In this document: positions 1,161-61,939 of the stretch, one piece after another
Numbering within the stretch: position 1 is the stretch's first letter
How the letters are laid out: each line of letters begins with the position of its first letter
Made by a program: the position numbers and the translations under genes
Notes under the pieces: generated by a model
The model's input: only the letters and a program-made list of their open reading frames with translations
Database searches by the model: none
Told to the model about the DNA's origin: nothing
NCBI GenBank assembly: GCA_020057885.1
Contig: JAGVEX010000009.1
Location: 36,704 to 100,703, forward strand
Length of the DNA: 64,000 nt
Origin: a bacterium
Lineage (GTDB): Bacteria > Patescibacteriota > Patescibacteriia > Veblenbacterales > UBA10138
Reading direction: 5' to 3'

Positions 1161-1325
1161 TTAAGTAATAAATCCTAAATCCGAAATTCTACCTGCCCGC
1201 CAGCAGGCGGGAATCCCAAACAATAGTGGAGATAAAAAATTAAATTATTTTGACATTTGGATTTTGGATTTGTTTAGATATTAGCCTGCCTGCGGTAGGC
1301 AGGAAATTAGATATTAGATTTTTGT
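1161..1325. repeat. AAATCC-type intergenic repeat element, copy 1
   Basis: Contains aatcctaaatccgaaatt ... GC hairpin cctgcccgcc-agc-ggcaggcggg ... ttgacatttggattttggatttgtttagatattag plus a second hairpin cctgcctgcggtaggcagg. About 95% identical core to 26283-26500. Confidence 0.6.
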
Positions 1326-2056: not shown

Positions 2057-2530
2057 TTACTTTCTCTTCTTGGCAAAGTTCACTAATTTACCCTCTACCA
2101 CTTTTAATAAATCTTTTGTTTTCATATGAAGCGAACTTTCAAAACTACCCGCTTGCACCACTGCTTTTTGCGCTTTCATTACTGCCTTATCTACATACAC
2201 CGGCAATTTATGCAAAGGGCCATGAAATGGTGAAATAGCACCTGGCTTAACTTTAAAAAGTTTTATCATTACATTTTCTCTATCAATATCAACTTTTTTG
2301 GCACCGGTAACTTTTTTGAGCGCCTTAAAATCAACTTGGTGTGAAGCTGGTAAAACTACCAAGGCGTGATCTTTATCAATTTTAACTACCAATGTTTTTA
2401 CCACTTCATTTAGTTTGCGTTTTAATGTTTGGGCTAAATCATAAGCTGTGAATACGGTACGGTGTTCTAACATCTCGTGTTTAATTTTATTTTTCTTTAA
2501 AAAATTTAAAACTTTCGCTGGAATCTTCAT
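2057..2530 (-). CDS. YbaK/ProX-family aminoacyl-tRNA deacylase (Cys-tRNA(Pro)/Ala-tRNA(Pro) editing domain-like)
   Basis: 157 aa; motifs HALVVLPASHQVDFKALKKVTGAKKV and GAISPFHGP resemble the YbaK/ProRS INS-editing fold. Confidence 0.5.
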   Translation of the reverse strand: MKIPAKVLNFLKKNKIKHEMLEHRTVFTAYDLAQTLKRKLNEVVKTLVVKIDKDHALVVLPASHQVDFKALKKVTGAKKVDIDRENVMIKLFKVKPGAISPFHGPLHKLPVYVDKAVMKAQKAVVQAGSFESSLHMKTKDLLKVVEGKLVNFAKKRK

Positions 2531-2542
2531 AGTAATAATAGG

Positions 2543-2851
2543 TTAAAAATTAAAATTAACAATTCCCTGTAACCAAGGCAATACAGGAACGTTGAAATAA
2601 GACAAAATAATTATAACTAAAGCCGCCAAGACCGCCAACATTAAAAGCTTGGTTACAATATGTGTAACAACTTTAAGCACTAACAATAAAACAACTACCA
2701 CTGCCAAACCTAAAGCCCACTGGGGTAAATCTTGGTCTAATTTCCAAGTTTGTCCGCCGCCTAAATTAATCCAAAGTTGCGGTAGGGTTACATAAGAACC
2801 AACAAAAACACCAATAATGGTTAGCCATTTGAGCGCGCGAGTAAAAAACAT
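2543..2851 (-). CDS. small integral membrane protein (3 predicted TM helices), unknown function
   Basis: 102 aa, strongly hydrophobic segments. Confidence 0.4.
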   Translation of the reverse strand: MFFTRALKWLTIIGVFVGSYVTLPQLWINLGGGQTWKLDQDLPQWALGLAVVVVLLLVLKVVTHIVTKLLMLAVLAALVIIILSYFNVPVLPWLQGIVNFNF

Positions 2852-2870
2852 AATATAATAAATCTTAAAA

Positions 2871-3188
2871 TTATTTGCTTACCTTTTTTAATTTAAAAGG
2901 AAAACACTGCTGTTCACCAAGTAATTTACGTGCTACTTTACGCCCTGCCGGCATAAGCTTAACCTCTTTGATATACCACTTTTTAGGAGTGCGTACTCCA
3001 TAACCAACCATTAAACCTTTATCTATTAAACTTTCAAAACTTTTAGTAATGATATTAACTATATCATCAATTTTTGGTTTAGTTTTTTGTTGATCATAAA
3101 ACTTTGCAAAGCCACCTCTCGACACTGCTCTCGGCGGAGTAAAATAACAACTGCGTAATATGTATTTTTGCAAAGGTGAAAGACGCAT
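2871..3188 (-). CDS. hypothetical basic protein
   Basis: 105-aa ORF, Lys/Arg rich; no recognisable motif. Confidence 0.3.
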   Translation of the reverse strand: MRLSPLQKYILRSCYFTPPRAVSRGGFAKFYDQQKTKPKIDDIVNIITKSFESLIDKGLMVGYGVRTPKKWYIKEVKLMPAGRKVARKLLGEQQCFPFKLKKVSK

Positions 3189-3210
3189 AATTAATAACTA
3201 TTAATAAATG

Positions 3211-4260
3211 CTAATTAGGGGCAACAACAGTACAACGCATGTCGTGCCGGTAAAACTGTTCACCCTGTTTGTTTAGCCCTTTCGCTTTCATATCAAAACA
3301 ATAACTACCGGGAAAAGTAGTGGTTTTATCAAATTTAACACCATAGTAACCATCGTTAGTATTGTTATCACCATGCTGACCATCGTCTAATAAAACCAGG
3401 TTGGTTACTACTACATCAACAGGCAGTGAAGTTTGTGTACCTGGACTGGTTCCTGTTTCTGTTTCTTTATTAATATTTCCTTTGTTTCTAAGGCTATCAT
3501 ATGCTTTTACTTCAAGTTCAACTTGTGCACCTTTTGCTGGCTCACCGGCTTGATTTACTATAGCAAGAAAATTTATCGCATCACCAAGGTGATACGTTTG
3601 TTTAGTTAGTTCGGCATCAAAAGAAAAATCTAACACAAGATTGGTGCCCACTAACAAATCAACAAATGGTACTTCACGATCTACTGATCCAGTCACCTGA
3701 ACTGTCCACTCACCCACCAGTGGTTCATAAAGACGATAAAATTCATAATGATCACTTTTTACCCGTTCAGTCACATTCTTGTACTCTGAATAATTATTTT
3801 GGTTAATAACCTTACCATTCGGCTGAATAAGCTCCATTGTAAAATTCAAACCATCAGCCATCCAACTAACAGGAAATTCGGCATAGCCAACGCTTGAATC
3901 AATTACATATTTAGTTATAACACGCTCATTACCAACTTCCTGATTGATTGGTTGCACTAAGGCATTGGGACGATTAAAACTAGGTCTAGATGATGTTGTT
4001 GTATTTATTGGTTCAATATCAGTGTTAGTTGGTGGATTTTCTTCTTCAATCACAACCAACCCCCCTGCCCCTTGTTTTGGTTGAATATAACCCTGTAATC
4101 GTTCAGCTATTCTTTCATCAACAGTTCCACCAAGACCATTATTGGTTTTGAATGGAGATGATGAAAATAACAAATTGTGTGCAAAAGAGTATAAAACAAC
4201 AACTGCAGTTGTAGTAGTTAAAAAAGCCACCGTTATTAAAATTTTTTCTCTAAGTACCAT
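3211..4260 (-). CDS. N-terminally anchored secreted/surface protein, unknown function
   Basis: 349 aa with one N-terminal TM helix (ILITVAFLTTTTAVVVLYSF) followed by a polar extracytoplasmic domain. Confidence 0.45.
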   Translation of the reverse strand: MVLREKILITVAFLTTTTAVVVLYSFAHNLLFSSSPFKTNNGLGGTVDERIAERLQGYIQPKQGAGGLVVIEEENPPTNTDIEPINTTTSSRPSFNRPNALVQPINQEVGNERVITKYVIDSSVGYAEFPVSWMADGLNFTMELIQPNGKVINQNNYSEYKNVTERVKSDHYEFYRLYEPLVGEWTVQVTGSVDREVPFVDLLVGTNLVLDFSFDAELTKQTYHLGDAINFLAIVNQAGEPAKGAQVELEVKAYDSLRNKGNINKETETGTSPGTQTSLPVDVVVTNLVLLDDGQHGDNNTNDGYYGVKFDKTTTFPGSYCFDMKAKGLNKQGEQFYRHDMRCTVVAPN

Positions 4261-16769: not shown

Positions 16770-17549
16770 TTATTCCAGTGCTACCTGGGTAATAAATTCT
16801 GGGAAAATCTCGACTTTTCGTACATCTGCCGGATTGAACAGAAACGATTGTACGTCTTGCCCTAACTCTTTGAAATCAAGGTTAGTAATAGACTCTAATA
16901 GCCGTTGGCGTAGTGCCGCCGCATCTCCAACGCCAAGCTTAACTTGAAGATAACCATAGTTTGGCTTGGTAAACGAGAGTAAAAAAACAATGTCGAAAAA
17001 ATCACGCCCCTTAGCTCGCTTGCGGTTGACGGCGGCGTAGATTTTCTGGGAGAGCAAGATATCTGGTGGGGTCACAAAAGCCTCTGAGAAAATATCGAAC
17101 TTGTTCAAAATTTTCTTATCGGGCTGGTACGGAAAATCATGCGCAAGACTGTCAATTTGTATCAGAATCTTCTCCTCCTGGAGAGGTGAGAGTTCGTTCA
17201 CAAACAAAATATCTGGTAAACGCACCCGACACCGGTAAGCATCTTTGCCCATAGTATCAACTTCAGCCTTTAGTCCCTGTCCTTCAAGCTTTACCTGTAC
17301 ATATTGAGCAAGCGCAGCAAACTCCCCCTCCTGAAGGCTAAAATTATCGAAATCCAAATCTTCTGAAAATCTAGTATTACCATATACAATACGGAGAGCG
17401 GTGCCTCCCAAAAATGAGAGTTTGCTCGCGTATTCAGAAGCAAATATAATTTCTAAAATTTTATATTGCAAATACTCCCGTAGTAGTCCGCGCTTGAATG
17501 GACGCAGCGATTCAGGGTATTGCTGTTCAATCTGCTCTAGGGAAAGCAT
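16770..17549 (-). CDS. AbiEii/DUF1814-family nucleotidyltransferase (type IV TA / abortive-infection toxin)
   Basis: 259 aa; FLGGTALRIVYGNTRFSEDLDFD matches the AbiEii GGTAL...R.SEDxD motif. Confidence 0.65.
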   Translation of the reverse strand: MLSLEQIEQQYPESLRPFKRGLLREYLQYKILEIIFASEYASKLSFLGGTALRIVYGNTRFSEDLDFDNFSLQEGEFAALAQYVQVKLEGQGLKAEVDTMGKDAYRCRVRLPDILFVNELSPLQEEKILIQIDSLAHDFPYQPDKKILNKFDIFSEAFVTPPDILLSQKIYAAVNRKRAKGRDFFDIVFLLSFTKPNYGYLQVKLGVGDAAALRQRLLESITNLDFKELGQDVQSFLFNPADVRKVEIFPEFITQVALE

Positions 17550-20616: not shown

Positions 20617-20760
20617 AAAGCCCCGTGTTAGCTAGGCCTTGCGACCCCATACCGGTTTCCCGGTATGGCCCAATGACGAGTTGCTGAACACGGGGTTCAG
20701 TATCGTCATTGGGTCTTATGCTGCCATGCCCACAGCAGAGTCGTGGGTTTAGGCAATTAA
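20617..20760 (-). ncRNA. GC-rich highly structured 5' leader / ncRNA candidate (riboswitch-like)
   Basis: Nested perfect hairpins: CCAUACCGG-GAAA-CCGGUAUGG (GNRA loop), CCCAAUGACGA...UCGUCAUUGGG enclosing CUGAAC-CCCGUG-UUCAG, CUGC...GCAG, plus a possible pseudoknot CCCCGUG/CACGGGG. Lies directly upstream of the 20586 start. Confidence 0.3.
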
Positions 20761-22907: not shown

Positions 22908-24110
22908 ATGTGTGTTCGTAAAATAGGTACATCTTGGAGAATAGATATTAGGTATCAACACATGCGGTACCGCCTTAAAAGCCCTGAAAACTCTAAAGCT
23001 GGAGCAGAGGCCTATGAAGCTACTTTGCGACAGAAATTAGCCCGTGGTGAGTCTATAGAGCCTGACAAACAAACACAGGTAACGACTATGCCTACGTTCA
23101 AAGAGTTTGCTGAAAAATGGTATCGCATCTATGTTCAAAATAATAATAAACCCTCGGAACAAAATACTAAGTCGTTAACTTTAGGTGCACACCTTTACCC
23201 GTGGTTTGGAAGTACTACGATTGATAAAATTACAGCATTACAGATTGAAGAATATAAAGCGTCAAAGCTTAAAACTGGTTTATCAGAGAAGACGGTTAAT
23301 AATCACTTGATAATTTTGAGTAAGTGTTTACGTACAGCTCAAGATTGGGCCGTGATAAGTGTTATGCCAAAAGTTCAACTACTTAAAGTTCCACCGTCAC
23401 GCTTTGATTTTCTGACACAAGAAGAAAGCGAGAGGCTACTTAAGTCAGTAAACCATCCCTTATGGCACGACATGATTCTATTGGCTTTAAGGACCGGCTT
23501 ACGCTTTGGTGAGATTATTGGTTTAGAGTGGAGTGATATAGATTTTGGGGCACAGGTATTAAATGTGAGGAGGTCTATTGTTGGGGGCGTGATTGGTAGC
23601 CCTAAGAGTAACAAAACACGCTGTATACCACTGACTAATGACATCATTGAGATGTTAAGAAAAAGGCAACATGCTAAAGGATTGGTGTTTGACGATAGTA
23701 TCAGCCAGGTAGTGAACTATTTCACTGCCAGAGATAACCTGACTAAACTTTGCAAGTCTGCTGGTTTGAGAGCTATAGGATGGCACACACTTCGTCATAG
23801 CTTCGCATCACAATTGGTAGCTAAAGGAGTTCCAATAATTACAGTACAAACATTACTAGGTCATTCAGATATAAGGATGACTACACGTTATGCGCACTTA
23901 GCTCCATCAACTTTACGTGAAGCGGTCATACTTTTAGAGAGCAATCCGAGAAATTTTGGGCACCAGATGGGCACTGAGTTTGCAACCCTATTTGACTCAC
24001 CAACGAAAAAAGCTCTTAATAGAGCTTTGTTTCCATCATTTAATTTGGTGGGTCCAGTGGGGATCGAACCCACGACACACGGCTTAAAAGGCCGCTGCTC
24101 TACCAACTGA
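22908..24110 (+). CDS. int: tyrosine-type site-specific integrase
   Basis: 400 aa; catalytic region LRTGLRFGEI...WHTLRHSFASQLVAKGVPIITVQTLLGHSDIRMTTRYAHL (R...HxxR...Y); reading frame runs into attR/tRNA. Confidence 0.85.
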   Translation: MCVRKIGTSWRIDIRYQHMRYRLKSPENSKAGAEAYEATLRQKLARGESIEPDKQTQVTTMPTFKEFAEKWYRIYVQNNNKPSEQNTKSLTLGAHLYPWFGSTTIDKITALQIEEYKASKLKTGLSEKTVNNHLIILSKCLRTAQDWAVISVMPKVQLLKVPPSRFDFLTQEESERLLKSVNHPLWHDMILLALRTGLRFGEIIGLEWSDIDFGAQVLNVRRSIVGGVIGSPKSNKTRCIPLTNDIIEMLRKRQHAKGLVFDDSISQVVNYFTARDNLTKLCKSAGLRAIGWHTLRHSFASQLVAKGVPIITVQTLLGHSDIRMTTRYAHLAPSTLREAVILLESNPRNFGHQMGTEFATLFDSPTKKALNRALFPSFNLVGPVGIEPTTHGLKGRCSTN

Positions 24111-24121
24111 GCTATGGACCC
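24046..24121 (-). tRNA. tRNA-Lys (anticodon UUU), CCA encoded
   Basis: Minus strand GGGTCCATAGCTCAGTTGGTAGAGCAGCGGCCTTTTAAGCCGTGTGTCGTGGGTTCGATCCCCACTGGACCCACCA folds as a cloverleaf with anticodon loop CUUUUAA. Confidence 0.85.
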
Positions 24122-24221
24122 AAATTAACCACAGCAAAAGAATTATAAGCGTAACTATATATTATTTCAAGTCCCCCACCCTAATAAGCCGCCCCAGATA
24201 GATTTATCACTCGTTCTTTAT

Positions 24222-49255: not shown

Positions 49256-49300
49256 ATTTTTAATATATAGAACGGTTGATAATCTATAGCCTACTGATAT

Positions 49301-50560
49301 TCATGCCGCACGTACTGCGCCATGACTTCGCACTAGCCACTTATATGTGGTAAGTTCTTGCAACGCCATTGGGCCACGAGCATGAAGCTTTTGAGTGCTT
49401 ATACCAATTTCTCCACCGAGGCCAAATTCATATCCATCAGTAAACGCGATAGAGGTGTTAATGTAGACTACTGCCGCGTCGATTACCTGCTGAAATTGCT
49501 TTGCAATTTTTGAGTTCGATGTAATAATACTTTCAGAATGCTTGGAAGTATAACGCTGGATATGGTTAACTCCCTCATGCCAATTTTTAACAACTTTCAC
49601 ACTCATAGTAAGGCTAAGAAATTCCTTGCCATAGTGTGATGGTTGAGCATGATGAAGTAAGACGCGAGGATAAACGCTATGTAATATACTATAGCTGGTG
49701 CGATCTGCATAAATTTTTACACCAGCTTGGGCTAATTTTGGTCCCAATATCTTAAAAAGTTTACTAGCAACAATGCGATCAACAACCAGTGTATCCAATG
49801 CGTTGCAAACGCTCACACGCCTCGTTTTAGCATTAAATACCGTTTGCACTGCCCAATTAAGATTTGCTGAACGTTCCACATAAATATGACACACGCCAGC
49901 ACCTGTTTCAATTAATGGAACTGTTGAATTACGTCTGGCATATTCAATTAATCTGCTACTTCCTCGTGGAATAATGACATCCAAATATTGATTCGCTTGT
50001 AAAAGACGATCAACGGAAGAACTATTAAAAGAATCAAGAAGAACCACGGCTTGGGGATTTATACCATTCATAAGCAACACTCTATGAATCAAACCTACGA
50101 GTACTTTATTGGTCTCATAAGCGTCGCGCCCCCCTTTGAGCACGAGTGCATTACCAGATTTTATTGCTAGACTAAATACTTCAATTGTAACATTTGGTCG
50201 TGCTTCGTAAATAATTCCAACAACGCCAAATGGAACGGTGCAACGTTCAATAGTAAGCCCGTTCTTTAAAACTCGATGATCGATCCTATGACCAACTGGA
50301 TCGGGGAGGTGCTCAACTGCCTTAAGACTCTCGGCTATTCCCTTAATACGTTCAGATGTTAATCGCAACCTATCTGCATGAGGATATGAAACTGTTAGGC
50401 GCAAAAAATCACGAGCATTAGCTGCTAAAATTTTTCTTGTTGAGGCAATGAGTAATAAACGGAGATCGCGAAGTACCGCGTTCTTCGTTTTAGTCTTTAG
50501 TAATTGAATATCACTAGAGGCTTGTTTGACCTTTTTAAGGGTTGAATCAAAATTTTTCAT
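49301..50560 (-). CDS. proA: gamma-glutamyl phosphate reductase
   Basis: 419 aa; ...PLIETGAGVCHIYVERSAN...AKTRRVSVCNALDTLVVDR matches ProA catalytic region. Confidence 0.8.
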   Translation of the reverse strand: MKNFDSTLKKVKQASSDIQLLKTKTKNAVLRDLRLLLIASTRKILAANARDFLRLTVSYPHADRLRLTSERIKGIAESLKAVEHLPDPVGHRIDHRVLKNGLTIERCTVPFGVVGIIYEARPNVTIEVFSLAIKSGNALVLKGGRDAYETNKVLVGLIHRVLLMNGINPQAVVLLDSFNSSSVDRLLQANQYLDVIIPRGSSRLIEYARRNSTVPLIETGAGVCHIYVERSANLNWAVQTVFNAKTRRVSVCNALDTLVVDRIVASKLFKILGPKLAQAGVKIYADRTSYSILHSVYPRVLLHHAQPSHYGKEFLSLTMSVKVVKNWHEGVNHIQRYTSKHSESIITSNSKIAKQFQQVIDAAVVYINTSIAFTDGYEFGLGGEIGISTQKLHARGPMALQELTTYKWLVRSHGAVRAA

Positions 50561-50694
50561 AGATGAATGTTCAATTATTATCCCACATATACAAATAAAG
50601 AATACACTATATCAAAATAAAAAGTAAGGCCAAATCGACGTAATTAAATACAAATCGATTTGGCCTTAATAGTATCCACTGATAGTGGTTTGTG

Positions 50695-52023
50695 TTAAAT
50701 AACCAAATGCTCTTTTTTATCCAGATTAATTGGACGATTGGGAGCAAATGTACGCAAGGACAGTGTATGTTGTTCGAACGGCACTGGAAGAGACACCGCA
50801 GCTTCTGTATCTACTCCGCGAATAATCTCTCGCACTAACAGCGCCGTAATTGGCGCATGCATAAGGCCATGTCCAGAAAAACCCGCAGCATGCACTAAGT
50901 TTGCAACCCTATCATCAAAACCAATCATGGGATTGTGATCTGGTGTTGTTTCATAGTACCCACATGTGATAGACGTTACAGCGCCACACTCTGCCAGCAC
51001 TGGAGAAAAATCAGCGACTTGGCTCATGAGTGCAACTGCACGATCTCCCATCGGAATATCGGCAAACATGGGTTCTACCAAATCTTGATCTGCATCGACG
51101 AAATTTGGCTCTGGTGGAGTTTCATGTGCCCATCCTAACATCAGACTACTACTTTCCGGACGAGAGTATACACCACGACCAGCGCCCATTCCATAAATGG
51201 TCATAGGCAGCTCATTCCACTTATTGGGCGCCACGACTTCATGATTACGGGTTGATAGAAACCACAGATACCGCTTAAGTGGCGAAATCCGTAAATCCAT
51301 ACCGCCCAGTGAACGACTCACGCGTGGTGACCAAGCACCGGCAGCATTTACTACCCAATCGCACTCAATTTCACCATGTGTAGTATTAAGAGCCACAATG
51401 TGATCATCAGAAATATGCGCGCCGATCACTTCAGTATTCTGGTGGAGAATAGCGCCAAGTTCCTGTGCCCGCCGAAAACCGAGTTAATAAATTTGATCGT
51501 GATTGAGAAATCCATCACTAGGACAATAGGTCGCGCCAATAAGACGACTACTGTCTATATGCGGCCAACGAACATGCACCTCAGATGGTGTCAAAACTTC
51601 AACCGGTAGTTTGATATCACGGTGCATCGCCGCTTGTGATTGGGCATGTATCCATGCCAATTCCACTTCCTTATGTTTTGATTGATCACCCTCATAGAAA
51701 ATCGGATCCTCATACAGAAAAAGGTATCCGTTATGCCGAATCATCCAGCATTGCTGATCTGATGGCGTGTGCATCAACTCATGAAAATGCTCATAGAAGT
51801 GCCCACTGAATGCCATACCGAGTGCTGTTTCCCGCACCCCAAACTGAGCACGGATGCACGCGGCTGAACGACTGGAAGACCCATTACCAATTGCTTTTTT
51901 CTCCAAGGCAATCACTTGGAATCCCGCTTCCGCGAGAAGAACAGAGCACAAAGCTCCAGTTGCGCCGCCACCAATAATGGCAACGCGGTCACCACTTTGT
52001 GGTGAATTCGATTGGTTTTTCAT
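50695..52023 (-). pseudogene. FAD-dependent oxidoreductase (DAO/glycine-oxidase-like) interrupted by an in-frame TAA stop at 51484-51486
   Basis: N-terminal ORF 51484..52023 carries the dinucleotide-binding motif VAIIGGGATGALCSVLLAEAG. C-terminal ORF 50695..51429 is in the same frame 54 nt later. Confidence 0.55.
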
Positions 52024-52033
52024 GTTTCACCTT

Positions 52034-53818
52034 TCAAGTTGTTTTTGCCAGAGTAAGCTGGCTGGTTGTATTGTTATGAGTGCGTGTTTGTTGAAACTCA
52101 ACACAGCGCTCTGTTATTTCATCTATATTGAGAATCTGACTTGCGCCAGTTTCCCGTACTCGTAGCTCTACCTTTCGTTCTGTTGCAAGACGCCCGACGG
52201 TAATTCTATATGGGCATCCAATGAGATCAGCGTCGTTAAATTTTACGCCGGCGCGTTCAGTGCGATCATCAAAGAGAACATCAACACCTTGCGCGGAAAG
52301 ATTCTCATAGAGCTCATTAGCCAAGCTTGATTGCTGTTGATTCGTGTAATCAACCGGCACAATATGCACTAAAAATGGTGCAACTGTAATCGGCCAGATA
52401 ATACCGTGATCATCATGATTCTGTTCAATAATGGCATGTAGCAATCTCGTTGTACCAATACCGTAGCAACCCATCCAAATTGCCTTGGCTTGCCCAGCAC
52501 TATCAAGAAATGTCGCACCCATAGCCTCAGCGTAAGCTTGCTGTAACATGAACACGTGTCCAACCTCAATTCCCTTGCTTTCCTCAAGCCCATCACCACA
52601 TTCCGGACAACCGTGACCTACCGTAGCCGTATGAAGCTCATAGAACTCTTTTGGTGTTTCGAGATCGCGACCAAAGTTTACATCCAGAGCATGGTGATCA
52701 GTCGTGTTGAACCCACAAAGGAAATTAGTCATCCCTTGTGTAGAATGGTCAAACAGAATGCGCTTCACTTTAGTGAGTCCAAGTGGACCCGCAAATCCCA
52801 CGGCGGCACCAGTAACCTCTTCAACCACTCGATCAATTGCTGGCACAACACTATCAACTGTCAAAAAATTTGTTAATTTCACCGTATTGACAGCAAGGTC
52901 GCCACGAATACAGACTGCGACTTCATATGGATTATTTGATTCTGGATTTACGGTAAATATGATCGTCTTGATCATATCGTGCGCTTTGATATCAGGGAAG
53001 AATCTTTCTAATTCCTCAACTGTTTTCGCATTTGGTGTTAACTCGTGTCGCAACGGACGCTGTGCAGAATTGTACTGATAGATCGGATAGCTACTATTAG
53101 CCTTTTCGGTATTAGCGCCGTAGTCACAGCGGGTGCAGGTGAGAAGTGTATCCTCCCCTACATCACATACTGCCATAAACTCGGCCGAACCTTGACCACC
53201 AATTGCACCAGAGTCTGCTTGGACGGAAACACAGTTCGTCAGCCCAAGTCGTAGAAAAATACGCGAATAAACATCACGCATCAACATAAAGGACTTATGC
53301 ATTCCTTCTTCATCGATATCAAATGAGTATGCATCTGACATAACAAACTCACGCGACCGAACCATTCCATACCGAGGACGCATCTCATCACGAAATTTTC
53401 TGCCGATTTGGTGAAGTATAACTGGCAGTTGCCGCCAAGATTTAATATCGTTCGCAACGAGCATTGTAATCACCTCTTCGGCTGTAGGAGACAAGCCAAA
53501 CATTTCACTAGAGTAACGCTCTTGGGTAGTGAACATTGTTTTTGATTTGAGATATTTTTCCCATCTTCCAGTTTGCTCCCACAAAGAGCTTGACTGTAAA
53601 ATGGGCAGATCAACATGTTGAATACCGACTTTGGTCATCTCATTAAAAACGATGCCACAAATTCGATCATGCACTAGCTTTCCTAGGGGAAGCAGGGCAA
53701 AAATACCAGCCGACCCGACGGATCTAATGAACCCCGCTTTTTCCAACAAGAGATGCGAAATGATCATATTTGATCGCATCCCTCGAAGGGTAGGTGGGAA
53801 TAGTTTTGAGAGTTTCAT
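52034..53818 (-). CDS. proS: prolyl-tRNA synthetase (bacterial-type)
   Basis: 594 aa; class-II motifs ...FRDEMRPRYGMVRSREFVMSDAYSFD... Confidence 0.85.
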   Translation of the reverse strand: MKLSKLFPPTLRGMRSNMIISHLLLEKAGFIRSVGSAGIFALLPLGKLVHDRICGIVFNEMTKVGIQHVDLPILQSSSLWEQTGRWEKYLKSKTMFTTQERYSSEMFGLSPTAEEVITMLVANDIKSWRQLPVILHQIGRKFRDEMRPRYGMVRSREFVMSDAYSFDIDEEGMHKSFMLMRDVYSRIFLRLGLTNCVSVQADSGAIGGQGSAEFMAVCDVGEDTLLTCTRCDYGANTEKANSSYPIYQYNSAQRPLRHELTPNAKTVEELERFFPDIKAHDMIKTIIFTVNPESNNPYEVAVCIRGDLAVNTVKLTNFLTVDSVVPAIDRVVEEVTGAAVGFAGPLGLTKVKRILFDHSTQGMTNFLCGFNTTDHHALDVNFGRDLETPKEFYELHTATVGHGCPECGDGLEESKGIEVGHVFMLQQAYAEAMGATFLDSAGQAKAIWMGCYGIGTTRLLHAIIEQNHDDHGIIWPITVAPFLVHIVPVDYTNQQQSSLANELYENLSAQGVDVLFDDRTERAGVKFNDADLIGCPYRITVGRLATERKVELRVRETGASQILNIDEITERCVEFQQTRTHNNTTSQLTLAKTT

Positions 53819-53894
53819 AAAAACACACTCCTTTCATAGAGGGTTTGGTTGTGAATGTTCAATTTTACTTGCATTTTATTTTCATACTACTTTA

Positions 53895-54731
53895 TCACTT
53901 ACGGAACGACCCGTCAAGAAAAGTAGAAATCGAACGAGAGCGTCGCGCGGCAGCACGAATTGCGTGAAGCCAAAGCTTATCAAGATGAGCTTTATGCAAA
54001 ATGTGAAAAGCCGCTTCAGTAGTACCACCTTTCGAAGCCACACGCTCACGCCAAATTTCGGGGGAATCAGTAGAATCCTCAAGGAGAGCAATGCTACCTT
54101 TTAGGGTTTGAAGCACTAATTTCTTAGCAACATCTGCTGATATTTTTAAATACTTCGCGGCACTAATAAGATCGGCGGCAAACGAAAAAAGATAAGCTGG
54201 CCCCGAGCCACTAACAGCCGTAATTGCATCAAACATATTTTCGTTATGAATTTCAATTTGCTCTCCTCCGGCACTGAAAAGCGATTGCGCAAAAAATTTT
54301 TGTTTCTTTGTTGTGGTACGAGTTGCATGCCAGGCAGAAAAACCTTTACCAATTATCATGGGAAGATTTGGCATCGCTCGCACAACACGAGAACACCCTG
54401 TGGCAGATCGAAGAGTTGCCACACTCACTCCAGCCATAATGGATATAATTAAGCCATTTTTGGAGAAGTGTTTATTAATTTGGTTGGCAACAGCAAAAAA
54501 ATCTTGTGGTTTAACAGCCACCAAAACGACTGTTGAGCTAGCCAAAACCGATGGTGAAAGATCGCTGATTGTATGAACTAAAAATTTAGACTTCAGTGTT
54601 CTCTGTTTTTGTATACTTCGTTCAATAACAGTAATTTGTCTAAAGGAAATACTAGACACGCGTAATAACGCCTGCAACACAGCAGTGCCCATATTCCCGC
54701 CGCCAATAATAGTAATATGATAATGTGTCAT
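53895..54731 (-). CDS. proC: pyrroline-5-carboxylate reductase
   Basis: 278 aa; Rossmann ITIIGGGNMGTAVLQAL. Confidence 0.8.
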   Translation of the reverse strand: MTHYHITIIGGGNMGTAVLQALLRVSSISFRQITVIERSIQKQRTLKSKFLVHTISDLSPSVLASSTVVLVAVKPQDFFAVANQINKHFSKNGLIISIMAGVSVATLRSATGCSRVVRAMPNLPMIIGKGFSAWHATRTTTKKQKFFAQSLFSAGGEQIEIHNENMFDAITAVSGSGPAYLFSFAADLISAAKYLKISADVAKKLVLQTLKGSIALLEDSTDSPEIWRERVASKGGTTEAAFHILHKAHLDKLWLHAIRAAARRSRSISTFLDGSFRK

Positions 54732-55807
54732 AAGGGAAAAAGAATTAAATTATCAGCATGCACGACCTCAATGTTAAATGGTCGCTCCTTGGTGACAATT
54801 ATTTTACCGAGATCAGTACTGGAGAGAGCTGACACGCCAAGAGCCACCGGACGATTTTCGTGATCGATAATTTCAACTGAATCGTCCGACTCGAATGTTC
54901 CATAAACATGTGTCACGCCAACGGCTAATAAACTCTTTCGTTGGCGAAGTGCGCCCATTGCGCCAACATCAATTTTAATACTGGCACTAGAAGTATGTGA
55001 AACAATTAGTCTTCGACTCCTGTCAGTTAATGAAATCGGCTGTGGCCAAGGTAAACAAACCGTGCCTCGGCACTTCTCACCGTCAATAATTTCAAGTGCA
55101 TGCTCAAGTATCCTACCATTGAGAATATATGTCGTGATACCAACAAAGCTAGCAAGACGGGCGGAACGCAACTTTGACTCCATACCCCCTCGCCCAGCCA
55201 AGCTCTTTTTGCCAAGATGCAAACTCATAAGCTCTTTGTTAACGTCGGTGATACAAGTAATAGGAGTCTGGTCGTGGTTGGTATTATTATCTGGTGCAGT
55301 ACGAAAAACGCCAGCTACATTAGTAAAAAGAAATATACTTTCTGCACCAATCACCACCCCGACGATTGTCGCAAGCTGATCGTTGTCTATAAAATCATGT
55401 GTCTCCGAAGATGATGTGGCATCATTTTCATTAATAAGTGGCGTAATACCTGCAGTGAGACATTCATGAAAAGTCTTTTGTAAGGTCATGTAGCGATTGC
55501 GCTCAATAATATCCTGACGGGAAAGAAGAAATTGCCCAAACTTAACACCAGTCGCAAGACCAAGTTGATACATAAATGCACTAATAATCAATTGCCCACG
55601 ACCAGCACGAGCTCCATATGAAGTAAGGGTAGGTGCATCTGATGTACCAACGGCTACGGCACCAGATAGTACTAATAATGGTAACTTGCCTCGGTTTTGA
55701 AAACCGCGTACTACATCAACAACCCTTTGGAGAAACGTTTGGCTAATATTGCCACGTTCATCTAACAAAGAGTTACTGCCAATCTTTATAACAACTGTAT
55801 TTTTCAT
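54728..55807 (-). CDS. proB: glutamate 5-kinase (with C-terminal PUA domain)
   Basis: 359 aa; VIKIGSNSL...PLINENDA...; 4-nt overlap with proC. Confidence 0.8.
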   Translation of the reverse strand: MKNTVVIKIGSNSLLDERGNISQTFLQRVVDVVRGFQNRGKLPLLVLSGAVAVGTSDAPTLTSYGARAGRGQLIISAFMYQLGLATGVKFGQFLLSRQDIIERNRYMTLQKTFHECLTAGITPLINENDATSSSETHDFIDNDQLATIVGVVIGAESIFLFTNVAGVFRTAPDNNTNHDQTPITCITDVNKELMSLHLGKKSLAGRGGMESKLRSARLASFVGITTYILNGRILEHALEIIDGEKCRGTVCLPWPQPISLTDRSRRLIVSHTSSASIKIDVGAMGALRQRKSLLAVGVTHVYGTFESDDSVEIIDHENRPVALGVSALSSTDLGKIIVTKERPFNIEVVHADNLILFPL

Positions 55808-56030
55808 AACATATCACTAAATCTAAAATATATATTAATTTTAGCCTATTTTTATACCTAAGTAAAGACTAAAAGTGGTGCACTGATAATCTGAATTGTT
55901 TGGTATTAATAATTCAATATATTTAATAAAAAACAATAGATAATCGGCATAATTTTTCACAAAAGCCGTTTGATATTCAAACGGCTTTTTTATATCTTTA
56001 TCTACTATATTTAAATTTAGAAAAATAAAA

Positions 56031-57564: not shown

Positions 57565-57740
57565 AATCTTTCACCTGCCTTTCATGCGGTAATGTATTGA
57601 TTGTTAATGAATTATTTTTGTTTTAATAATAAAGTTTTAGCATAAAACTAATAATAATTCAAATATCTAAATATGCCTTTTAAACAAAACTCCACGGGCT
57701 TATGCCCGTGGTTTAAGTAAAGTATTATGGTATATAAAAA

Positions 57741-58150
57741 CATACCAATGGTCGGGGTGGAGGCCTGCCTGCGACTCGATTGAGCTCGTCGAAATCCGGC
57801 AGGCAGGGAGTCGCCCATAAACCACAATGGTTCAGGGCGCCCTGAACCGCGTTCCGCTCCGCGGAACTCTGGTTCTAGGGCGAACCCTCTGTCACACCCT
57901 CCGGGGTGAAATTATTTATTCTGAATCATCTCATCAGAGTCGGGGTGGAGGGAGTCGAACCCTCTGTCACACCCACCCCAAGGGTGCATGTTACCGGTAC
58001 ACCACACCCCGACCCTGATGAGATTTTTAAAAAATGTACACCCGTGAAAGCTGCAAGTTTTCGCTTTCACCCCCGCGGATGCTTAAAGTTGCCGGCTTGC
58101 CCTGTACCTCCGCCAAAGGCGGATGGTGCAGGGTACACCACACCCCGACC
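57741..58150. repeat. tRNA-Pro fragments and GC-rich perfect palindromes flanking the intact tRNA-Pro
   Basis: 3'-end fragment gtcggggtggag at 57741-57752; anticodon-to-T-arm fragment at 57883-57905; 5' acceptor/D-arm fragment at 58128-58150; perfect hairpins ggaacgcggttcagggcgccctgaaccgcgttcc. Confidence 0.5.
57940..58011 (-). tRNA. tRNA-Pro (anticodon GGG), no encoded CCA
   Basis: Minus strand CGGGGTG-TG-GTGT-ACCGGTAAC-ACAT-G-CACCC-TTGGGGT-GGGTG-TGACA-GAGGG-TTCGACT-CCCTC-CACCCCG-A; anticodon loop UUGGGGU. Confidence 0.7.
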
Positions 58151-58164
58151 ACTAGTATGTTTAT

Positions 58165-58192
58165 AAGCAAAAAAGCCCAACGGGCTTCAATG
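58165..58192 (-). terminator. strong intrinsic terminator (minus strand)
   Basis: agcccgttgggct followed by ttttttgc on the minus strand. Confidence 0.6.
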
Positions 58193-58608
58193 TAACATTA
58201 TTTCCCTAAAATTAAAAGCCCTACCATCGGTTTGATACAATTGGAGTTCCTGTGAATCAAGTTGGGTTGGTTCTAAAGGCCGCTGGGGCCAATGAGGGTG
58301 TGTTCCTTACTCCCACTGTTCCATACTGCCTCTACCCCTTTACCGCTTGGTGTTCTCGAACTTATGCCCAAGGGCATAAATTATACTGAACCCCTATATA
58401 TTGAGATTGTAGAGCTCAATAAATATCAAACCATGTTGGATAGAGCTATTATTAATGATAGCGCAGATTAAGCAAGTTGTCAAGGCAATAAAATGAAGTT
58501 TTTGGCTAAGATTAGCCTTTTTTAAGTAAGTTAGCCAAAAATAAAAGGGGCGAATTTTTCGTCCCTTTTTTAAGCAAAATTTTATTGTTTTTTATGAATA
58601 TTTTTTCA

Positions 58609-61464: not shown

Positions 61465-61939
61465 GGCTAACTCCTTTTAAAAGTGACTGATAATCAATTG
61501 TTAATTTACATTTTAATTTTATTTAAAACAAAAAGCGCTTTTCGCCCTAAAGCATCCGAGAGAGAAGAAACTTCTCTAACAGAAAATCTTAAGGACGAAA
61601 AGCGCTTTTCAAATTGTAAAACACTTTCCGCGGTACCACCCTGATTGGCTAATAACTAATGGCAACCTGCCTATAGCATTAACCCTCTTTATGCACTCCC
61701 AAATTTATGAGATATACACTTATTCTATAACGGGAACTCCCGTCCTTATCTAATATTCAAAAAATGAAATTCAATAAGGCAACTCCAGAGGGAACTTCCA
61801 CTAAAATACCCCGGAAAATGCTCACAATCAAGGCATTTTCTCCCTGTACAGGATAAATAAAGTGTACTTTCCTCTTTCACTGTTTTTAACTAATTTCTAA
61901 AAGAACAACCTGTAAAAACTATTATACACCCAGTTAAAA

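Follow-up and report, generated by a model that had tools for sequence, protein, structure and literature searches.

In the 64,000-nucleotide stretch of DNA analyzed here (the window; contig JAGVEX010000009.1 of assembly GCA_020057885.1, from a member of the Patescibacteriota), an intact transfer RNA (tRNA) gene, tRNA-Pro(GGG), lies nested within the scattered pieces of another tRNA-Pro gene. The pieces are collinear and form one complete outer copy with an encoded CCA end, which is interrupted four times: in the D loop, in the anticodon loop, in the T loop, and at the junction of the T stem and acceptor stem. Comparison with a close relative (L013; L numbers denote the contigs compared with the window) identifies the outer copy as the ancestral gene, and other lineages show the nested layout too, with junction motifs in common. 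The locus is probably an insertion and recombination hotspot, in which the ancestral tRNA-Pro was split by insertions, is now a pseudogene shell, and surrounds a nested replacement gene.

An intact tRNA-Pro gene within a broken one

An original prediction, made from the sequence alone, had placed an intact tRNA-Pro(GGG) on the minus strand, and ARAGORN and Rfam both confirm it, with the start at 57939/57940 and the end at 58011. The inner copy scores 54.9 bits against Rfam family RF00005 (gathering score, 29) and has the properties of a canonical tRNA gene: a cloverleaf, a 7-nt anticodon loop, and detection by tRNA finders. It is flanked by its own 13-bp leader/trailer stem, whose strands are complementary to each other but unrelated, beyond GGT and C, to the outer pair. 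Across 10 intact copies from the loci compared, the 12 to 14 bases on each side always pair despite their differing sequences (96.7% pairing, with changes on both sides at 13 pairs); none of 500 shuffles reached as high a value, and slid registers did not come close either. Because every intact copy sits in this covarying helix, which spans about 21 bp, precursor structure appears to matter in this clade. Moreover, that two independent islands should have supplied complementary ends by chance is not credible, which argues that the inner copy came as a unit.

The outer copy was recognized from three direct repeats of the inner one, all in the same orientation as the intact gene. Positions 58132-58150 equal 57996-58014 at 19 of 19 positions (repeat finder) and comprise GGT, the 5′ acceptor strand, and the 5′ part of the D arm; 57881-57902 match 57956-57977 at 21 of 22 positions, 19 of them in an exact match, and contain the 3′ strand of the anticodon stem, the variable loop, and the T stem and loop; and 57751-57763 equal 57939-57951 at 13 of 13 positions, covering the 3′ strands of the T stem and acceptor stem. 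When the longest direct repeat was recorded in 2,000 first-order Markov simulations of the 701-nt region, its mean length was 9 nt; repeats of at least 13 nt arose in 16 runs and repeats of 19 nt in none. The same-orientation fragments of the original prediction are thereby upheld, with matches (19, 19, and 13 nt) that do not fall below about 10 nt on alignment, although two of its boundaries shift: the 3′ acceptor piece, put at 57741-57752, lies at 57749-57763, and the 5′ piece begins at 58132 instead of 58128.

With a short fourth piece (ACTC, 57808-57811), which the original prediction had missed, as it had the collinearity of the pieces, the outer tRNA-Pro runs without change of order from 58147 to 57749, and on the minus strand from 58162 to 57738 each base can be assigned to a part of a tRNA or to an insert (Table 1). 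Removing the four inserts in silico leaves a near-full-length tRNA-Pro of 78 to 82 nt with CCA, approximately 90% identical to the native tRNA and departing from it only at the 3′ strand of the D stem and in the anticodon loop. The outer copy is not called as a tRNA in place by ARAGORN or Rfam, nor by ARAGORN at default settings after insert removal. Its leader and trailer form a 25-nt inverted repeat (I2, 88% complementary), and the 436-nt transcript folds far more stably than its shuffles (z = −10.95). The right-hand anticodon-arm copy, CACCC-CGGA-GGGTG, may be a local, mutated anticodon hairpin or, as in the predicted minimum free energy (MFE) fold, the 3′ strand of an extended stem with the upstream GGGGG.

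Table 1. Features of the tRNA-Pro locus in the window, in minus-strand order
Feature	Position	Strand	Basis or remark
Intrinsic terminator separating the tRNA unit from the structured RNA upstream	58168..58188	(-)	absent from L013
Outer leader AAACATACTAGTGGT; pairs with outer trailer and lengthens outer acceptor stem	58148..58162	(-)	inverted repeat I2; MFE fold; same leader before the plain tRNA of L013
Outer tRNA-Pro positions 1-17: 5′ acceptor strand, U8/G9, D stem 5′ strand, start of D loop	58132..58147	(-)	19/19 identity to inner copy, including GGT of leader
H1: 38-nt GC-rich hairpin in outer D loop	58094..58131	(-)	absent from L013; single copy in the related DNA searched
Degenerate outer D loop and 3′ part of D stem (GGCAACTTTAAG versus GGTAACATG)	58082..58093	(-)	spliced outer copy aligned to native tRNA
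Left anticodon-arm copy: CATCC, altered loop GCGGGGG, hairpin H2, C, GGGTG, TACA	58035..58081	(-)	motif shared with L004, L005, L008
H2: hairpin inserted in left anticodon-arm copy	58045-58069	(-)	stems differ between loci yet are paired; loop starts GAA
AT-rich linker and inner leader (AAATCTCATCAGGGT)	58012..58034	(-)	inverted repeat I1 (29 nt, 83%); leader/trailer covariation
Inner tRNA-Pro(GGG), intact, CCA not encoded	57940..58011	(-)	ARAGORN; Rfam RF00005, 54.9 bits
Inner trailer (CTCTGATGAGAT) and AT-rich linker	57909..57939	(-)	inverted repeat I1; leader/trailer covariation
Right anticodon-arm copy CACCC-CGGA-GGGTG, loop reduced from 7 to 4 nt	57895..57908	(-)	motif recurs in L004, L005, L007, L008
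Outer variable loop, T stem 5′ strand, first 4 nt of T loop (TGACAGAGGGTTCG)	57881..57894	(-)	repeat D1
X2: 69-nt insert in outer T loop	57812..57880	(-)	absent from L013; inverted repeat I8; single copy in the related DNA searched
3′ end of outer T loop plus first base of T stem 3′ strand (ACTC)	57808..57811	(-)	base-by-base parse
X3: 44-nt hairpin CCTGCCTGC...GCAGGCAGG at T-stem/acceptor junction	57764..57807	(-)	same stem in relatives at same tRNA position
Remainder of outer T stem 3′ strand, acceptor 3′ strand, A73, encoded CCA (CCTCCACCCCGACCA)	57749..57763	(-)	repeat D5; aligns to tRNA 3′ end of L013
Outer trailer TTGGTATGTTT; pairs with outer leader	57738..57748	(-)	MFE fold; inverted repeat I2; L013 comparison
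Intrinsic terminator closing the tRNA unit	57682..57711	(-)	conserved in L013

The inserts measure 38 to 175 nt each and 338 nt in total. X2 holds the hairpin GTTCCGC-GGA-GCGGAAC beside a perfect 20-nt palindrome, GGTTCAGGGCGCCCTGAACC (57829-57848), and its ends, as read from the sequence, re-form hairpins with the host strands of the T stem (AGGG-TTCG-CCCT and GGG-CGACT-CCC). At both junctions of the anticodon-loop and T-loop inserts there is a complete arm, one strand of which comes from the host and the other from the insert. X3, which interrupts a stem strand, belongs to a dispersed family: L005 (twice) and L008 carry its stem at the matching point of the tRNA, and free-standing copies occur in intergenic DNA of the window (1285-1303), L014 (three times), L012, and L001. 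The perfect GC palindromes of the original prediction hold in part, in that the 20-nt palindrome is perfect; not all of the hairpins are, however, and X3 alone is in a repeated family. A 34-nt palindrome quoted there is not literally present and had conflated the two strands, the real elements being the 20-nt palindrome and the separate 7-bp hairpin.

Short GC-rich hairpins of 20 nt (CCTGCCTGCNGNNGCAGGCAGG, CCTGCCCGCCAGCAGGCGGG) are scattered through AT-rich intergenic DNA of diverse contigs (window 1194-1213 and 1285-1303; L014 at 4058, 13802, and 16143; L012 at 6767; L001 at 3609). They are often flanked by tagatattag-like repeats and resemble repetitive extragenic palindromic (REP) elements, without an identified transposase.

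Plain and nested alleles among relatives

L013, a contig found through the neighboring gene for a TrpR-like protein, carries a single uninterrupted tRNA-Pro with CCA exactly at the position of the outer shell, together with the same leader, trailer, terminator, and radical SAM (rSAM) gene. Its flanks align with those of the window at 92.8% identity, the window being longer by 338 nt. Because the site is empty in L013, the outer copy is ancestral and the inner copy is the newcomer. The original prediction had offered a decayed second tRNA disrupted by insertions as one of its readings: the uninterrupted gene of L013 essentially establishes the disruption, but the disrupted gene is the ancestral one and not a second.

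A metagenome scan with a 19-mer of the tRNA body yielded nine loci. Four other Patescibacteria contigs, L004, L005, L007, and L008 (the last identical to L010), show a nested or fragmented layout: each holds an intact tRNA-Pro, flanked by a stem of its own, with pieces of another copy around or after it. Plain tRNA-Pro genes are present in L027, L019, L011/L021, and L014-16. The body of the inner tRNA is identical in sequence in L004, L005, L007, L008, L013, L019, and L026. Nested L005 and plain L026 share aligned flanks that are 88% identical, and the outer leader and trailer of L005 match the plain genes of its relatives L026 and L019. Measured by the conserved RNA next to the gene, even lineages with 98% and 89% identity differ in having the nested or the plain allele. 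Such a comparison of the locus across related genomes had been proposed with the original prediction, and its outcome, an alternation of nested and plain alleles among close relatives, supports the recombination hotspot postulated there, as do two islands bounded by repeats.

In L008, such an island of 1.7 kb (2290-3946) lies downstream of the tRNA-Pro array between direct repeats of about 50 bp, each consisting of the tRNA 3′ end plus terminator; it encodes a GIY-YIG nuclease-domain protein, a helix-turn-helix (HTH) plus SocA/Panacea antitoxin, and a 134-aa protein of unknown function, and it has no integrase. In L005, an island of about 700 bp lies between direct repeats of the 3′ part of the tRNA, with the original 3′ end and trailer farthest out.

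The nested loci have non-tRNA junction sequences in common. The 5′ motif CAYCC-G[AC]GGGGG-hairpin-C-GGGYG is common to the window, L004, L005, and L008, and the 3′ motif NRCCC-NGGA-GGGTG occurs in L004, L005, L007 (twice), and L008, in hosts that are only 62 to 70% identical in the neighboring RNA. Layers may be several deep: L007 has three successive 3′ parts, each with the end CCACCCCGACCA, its 5′ side lying beyond the contig. Damage to the shell is specific to the locus (D-arm deletions in L005; a degenerate D arm and lost T loop in L008; a second layer without T stem in L007), and the older, outer fragments 2 and 3 of L005 carry accumulated substitutions. The acceptor strands and CCA of the shell are intact in all nested loci. 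In L008, a second copy of the host leader, CATACTTTC, stands beside the 3′ remnant.

Among viral contigs, two scans with 19-mers of the tRNA gave no match. The nearest homologues of the flanking rSAM protein are only about 60% identical and are scattered over DPANN and candidate phyla radiation (CPR) lineages. Judging by named homologues of proteins encoded nearby, the organism of the window belongs to the Patescibacteria (CPR).

Genes and RNAs around the locus

A 6.7-kb block of proline genes (pro block, ~49264-55970) holds proB, proC, proS, a split flavin adenine dinucleotide (FAD)-dependent oxidoreductase, and a proA-like aldehyde dehydrogenase. Relative to L013, from which it is absent, the block is inserted between the rSAM gene and an M50 protease. 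The original prediction had placed the tRNA hotspot next to this block; the block is a separate insertion and is not bounded by tRNA fragments. A genome scan anchored on prolyl-tRNA synthetase (ProRS) found L001, which shares the pro block only, not the tRNA locus; in this unrelated metagenome-assembled genome (MAG), labelled Gammaproteobacteria, the block is about 70% identical at the DNA level, which points to horizontal acquisition of proline synthesis and ProRS by the CPR genome. The oxidoreductase is divided into open reading frames (ORFs) at 50695-51300 and 51484-52023 (minus strand) and is a single 440-aa ORF in L001, so that the split probably marks a frameshift or pseudogene. The nested locus marks a plastic region of the genome, with a block for proline biosynthesis and ProRS inserted nearby.

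Directly upstream of tRNA-Pro, in nine lineages, lies a conserved structured RNA of about 225 nt (~58215-58452 in the window, minus strand). RNAalifold gives 64 pairs, 27 of them with compensatory changes, and the promoter at 58483-58455 is near consensus (TTGACA-17-TATCAT), preceded by two TTGGCTAA..TTAGCCAA palindromes (~58500-58545). In most lineages the closing stem overlaps the RNA's own terminator, which in the lineage of the window and L013 is weakened by a compensatory change in that stem. The RNA belongs to no Rfam family; RNase P, signal recognition particle (SRP), and 6S RNAs were considered and set aside for want of Rfam support.

Farther away, a T-box leader (61588-61889, minus strand; 114 bits) is syntenic in L005, L013, L017, and L019, with an invariant specifier region, GAAGUUCCCUCUGGAG. 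It precedes small ORFs of unknown function, a zinc-ribbon protein, and the TrpR-like protein, and not an aminoacyl-tRNA synthetase or biosynthesis gene. We dropped a link between the T-box and tRNA-Pro, given that GAAGUUCCCUCUGGAG presents no clear Pro codon and that the T-box precedes unrelated small ORFs at a distance of 3.6 kb.

A single integrase was found in the window, a tyrosine integrase (22908-24110, plus strand) whose gene overlaps the 3′ side of tRNA-Lys(UUU) (24046-24121, minus strand). Upstream of it are an HTH protein, a LOOT RNA (20634-20755), and an AbiEii toxin (16770-17549), and the region is probably an integrated element. At tRNA-Lys (24000-24170, minus strand), the leader TTAATT is complementary to the trailer AATTAA, on either side of the encoded CCA; such pairing of leader with trailer may hold for the tRNA precursors of this organism in general.

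Origin of the nested locus and its place among known systems

Integrase crossovers in tRNA genes fall at three subsites, namely the anticodon loop, the T loop, and the T/acceptor junction (PMC4383910), and the anticodon-loop insert, X2, and X3, respectively, occupy them; H1, in the D loop, is at none of the three. The two anticodon-arm copies (58035-58081 and 57895-57908) bound an insert missing from L013, as the direct repeats of an attachment (att) scar do. Also in line with integration at tRNA genes are the islands of L005 and L008 and the tyrosine integrase that abuts tRNA-Lys in the window. In the history we favor, the resident tRNA-Pro would have been split at these canonical att subsites, the shell keeping its original leader, trailer, and CCA, and its function would have passed to a complete replacement tRNA-Pro that arrived in the anticodon-loop insert as a unit with its complementary leader/trailer stem. 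We infer that the insertions are footprints of recombination at tRNA stem-loops because arm copies at the junctions are the expected residue of exchange between a tRNA arm and an arm-like site. The insert could then have been gained or lost among related genomes by way of the identical flanking tRNA sequence, and repeated insertion into whichever copy was intact would have produced several layers, as L007 suggests. A single precursor probably spans the whole array, and only the inner tRNA would mature from it.

Several observations weigh against this history. Neither the insert nor the DNA beside it has a gene for an integrase, transposase, or nuclease; the ORFs of the insert only overlap RNA features, and its length of about 340 nt is too small for such a gene. 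H1, H2, and X2 have no further copies in the approximately 0.3 Mb of related DNA searched. Canonical integration regenerates the tRNA at a junction; here no target is regenerated there, and the intact gene, which has a leader and trailer of its own, stands within the insert at 23 and 31 nt from the two arm copies. A single reciprocal crossover in TTGGGGT would not yield the junction loops GCGGGGG and CGGA. For independent events, five indels at roughly 7% divergence from L013 are many; the composite therefore more likely moved, or was lost, as a block, which homologous repair through the identical tRNA sequence on both sides would allow. It is also unusual for a plain pseudogene in a streamlined genome to gain insertions rather than deletions, and the shell RNA could be under selection, in view of its intact acceptor strands and CCA and of an H2 stem that stays paired in differing sequences and whose loop keeps its GAA start. 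We accordingly reject, as full explanations, both the standard single-crossover integrase model, which the junction loops do not fit, and a two-island model, with which the complementary inner leader and trailer do not agree. The site-specific recombination scars of the original prediction agree with three of the four insertion points, which fall at crossover subsites; the missing recombinase and the misfitting junctions do not agree with them, and the recombination may be surmised from the arm copies.

If the shell is under selection, it might be a functional, tRNA-derived scaffold that encloses the working tRNA-Pro and controls, for example, its processing, stability, or release, the plain alleles being secondary losses by deletion between direct repeats. 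The stable fold of the transcript, the preserved acceptor strands and CCA, the persistence of the junction motifs across distant hosts, the paired H2 stem, and the covarying helix around every intact copy would all suit such a scaffold, as would a unit that sits between terminators downstream of a strongly promoted conserved RNA. We nevertheless judge it unlikely: the nearest relatives of two nested loci carry the plain form, the D and T arms are damaged differently at L005, at L008, and in the second layer of L007, insert sequences, sizes, and exact T-arm positions vary among loci, and substitutions accumulate in the older fragments of L005. The four to five examples are too few for a covariation test of shell-specific pairs. 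Rather improbable, in our estimation, is local duplication and decay with no mobile element, in which slippage or unequal recombination at a quasi-palindromic gene made copies that then lost parts and gained hairpins. Although the 5′ and 3′ pieces overlap in the manner of a duplicated segment (in the anticodon arm, at about positions 27 to 43, and in the window also in the variable loop), the tRNA bodies are identical, and L008 has its second host leader, such a duplication leaves unexplained why the inner leader and trailer are unlike the outer ones, why the outer copy encodes CCA and the inner does not, and why the same non-tRNA junction motifs appear in distant hosts; moreover, the host leader and trailer stand outside the outermost halves, as an insertion and not a tandem duplication would leave them.

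That the outer copy is an intron-containing or split gene, spliced into a second functional tRNA-Pro, is highly improbable. Its inserts lie in loops, and their excision restores the T arm and acceptor stem exactly, but X3 breaks a stem strand, the D stem 3′ strand is degenerate, and the anticodon loop would be GCGGGGG or CGGA, with neither U33 nor a 7-nt loop; ARAGORN rejects the spliced sequence at default settings, and Rfam shows no match to group I or II introns, nor does any further family exceed its threshold. We scarcely credit chance similarity or an assembly artefact. The sequences are indeed metagenome assemblies; against this, 19-nt repeats appeared in none of the 2,000 simulations, the repeats are shorter than typical assembly k-mers, and independent assemblies of Joint Genome Institute (JGI) samples show the layout again in different sequences.

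Within the insertion-hotspot reading, a more specific possibility, which we put forward tentatively, is that the nested unit is a small, nonautonomous, “self-nesting” cassette of Patescibacteria or else that the shell left behind has come to serve as a structured scaffold of the precursor. The cassette would consist of a complete tRNA-Pro(GGG), its own processing stem, and ends that mimic tRNA arms, and it would insert into the anticodon or T loop of the resident gene; each insertion would bring a fresh, intact target that could be hit again, giving Russian-doll genes several layers deep. If true, a mobile cassette carrying its own copy of the target would be a compact and cost-free way to disrupt an essential single-copy gene, and multilayer nesting would be explained.

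Four known kinds of system invite comparison. Archaeal disrupted tRNA genes, with multiple introns or in split or permuted form (PMC3978253), are likewise interrupted at several positions with flanks that pair; the present locus, in contrast, is bacterial, is free of bulge-helix-bulge motifs, and has an outer copy without a workable anticodon loop. Rfam searches of the locus at gathering and permissive thresholds (E values up to 10) returned the inner tRNA only, with no match to introns, transfer-messenger RNA (tmRNA), ROOL/GOLLD, or Y-RNA-like families; ARAGORN found no tmRNA, and the scores for tmRNA_permuted (11.7 bits versus 47) and mascRNA (17 versus 42.5) were low. Dispersed palindromes of the REP or miniature inverted-repeat transposable element (MITE) type are matched by the X3 stem, which has free-standing counterparts between genes in the window and several related contigs, but not by H1, H2, and X2, which are single-copy in the approximately 0.3 Mb searched, and no associated transposase was seen.

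The homing of introns and homing endonuclease genes is similar in that the insert occupies a fixed site of a highly conserved gene and is patchy among close relatives, in that identical flanking “exon” sequence could drive spread by repair, and in the GIY-YIG gene of the L008 island; it differs in that there is no splicing, the host gene is not restored, the insert of the window has no endonuclease, and the element carries a whole gene copy.

The locus resembles on several counts the tRNA fragments left by integrative elements (attL/attR), the basis of the Islander principle (PMC4383910) and of partial tRNA genes as a recognized class (PMC9897764): direct repeats of tRNA segments flank the inserted DNA, the inserts are at the three crossover subsites, relatives offer empty sites, and other relatives carry serial 3′ fragments with small islands between them. 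The differences are that the intact gene, with a leader and trailer of its own, is inside the insert instead of being regenerated at a junction, that both the 5′ and 3′ fragments persist and still pair, and that the inserts are short, lack an integrase, and have junction loops that do not fit one crossover.

Fragments of tRNA genes are usually taken to mark the ends of genomic islands. In this locus, both halves of the gene are still present on either side of a complete replacement copy, in an arrangement that recurs in several uncultured lineages with tiny genomes and that will mislead tRNA annotation and island finders. A literature search found no description of it. Scars of integration into tRNA genes are thus the known part of this picture, and the recurrent nested architecture is the new one.
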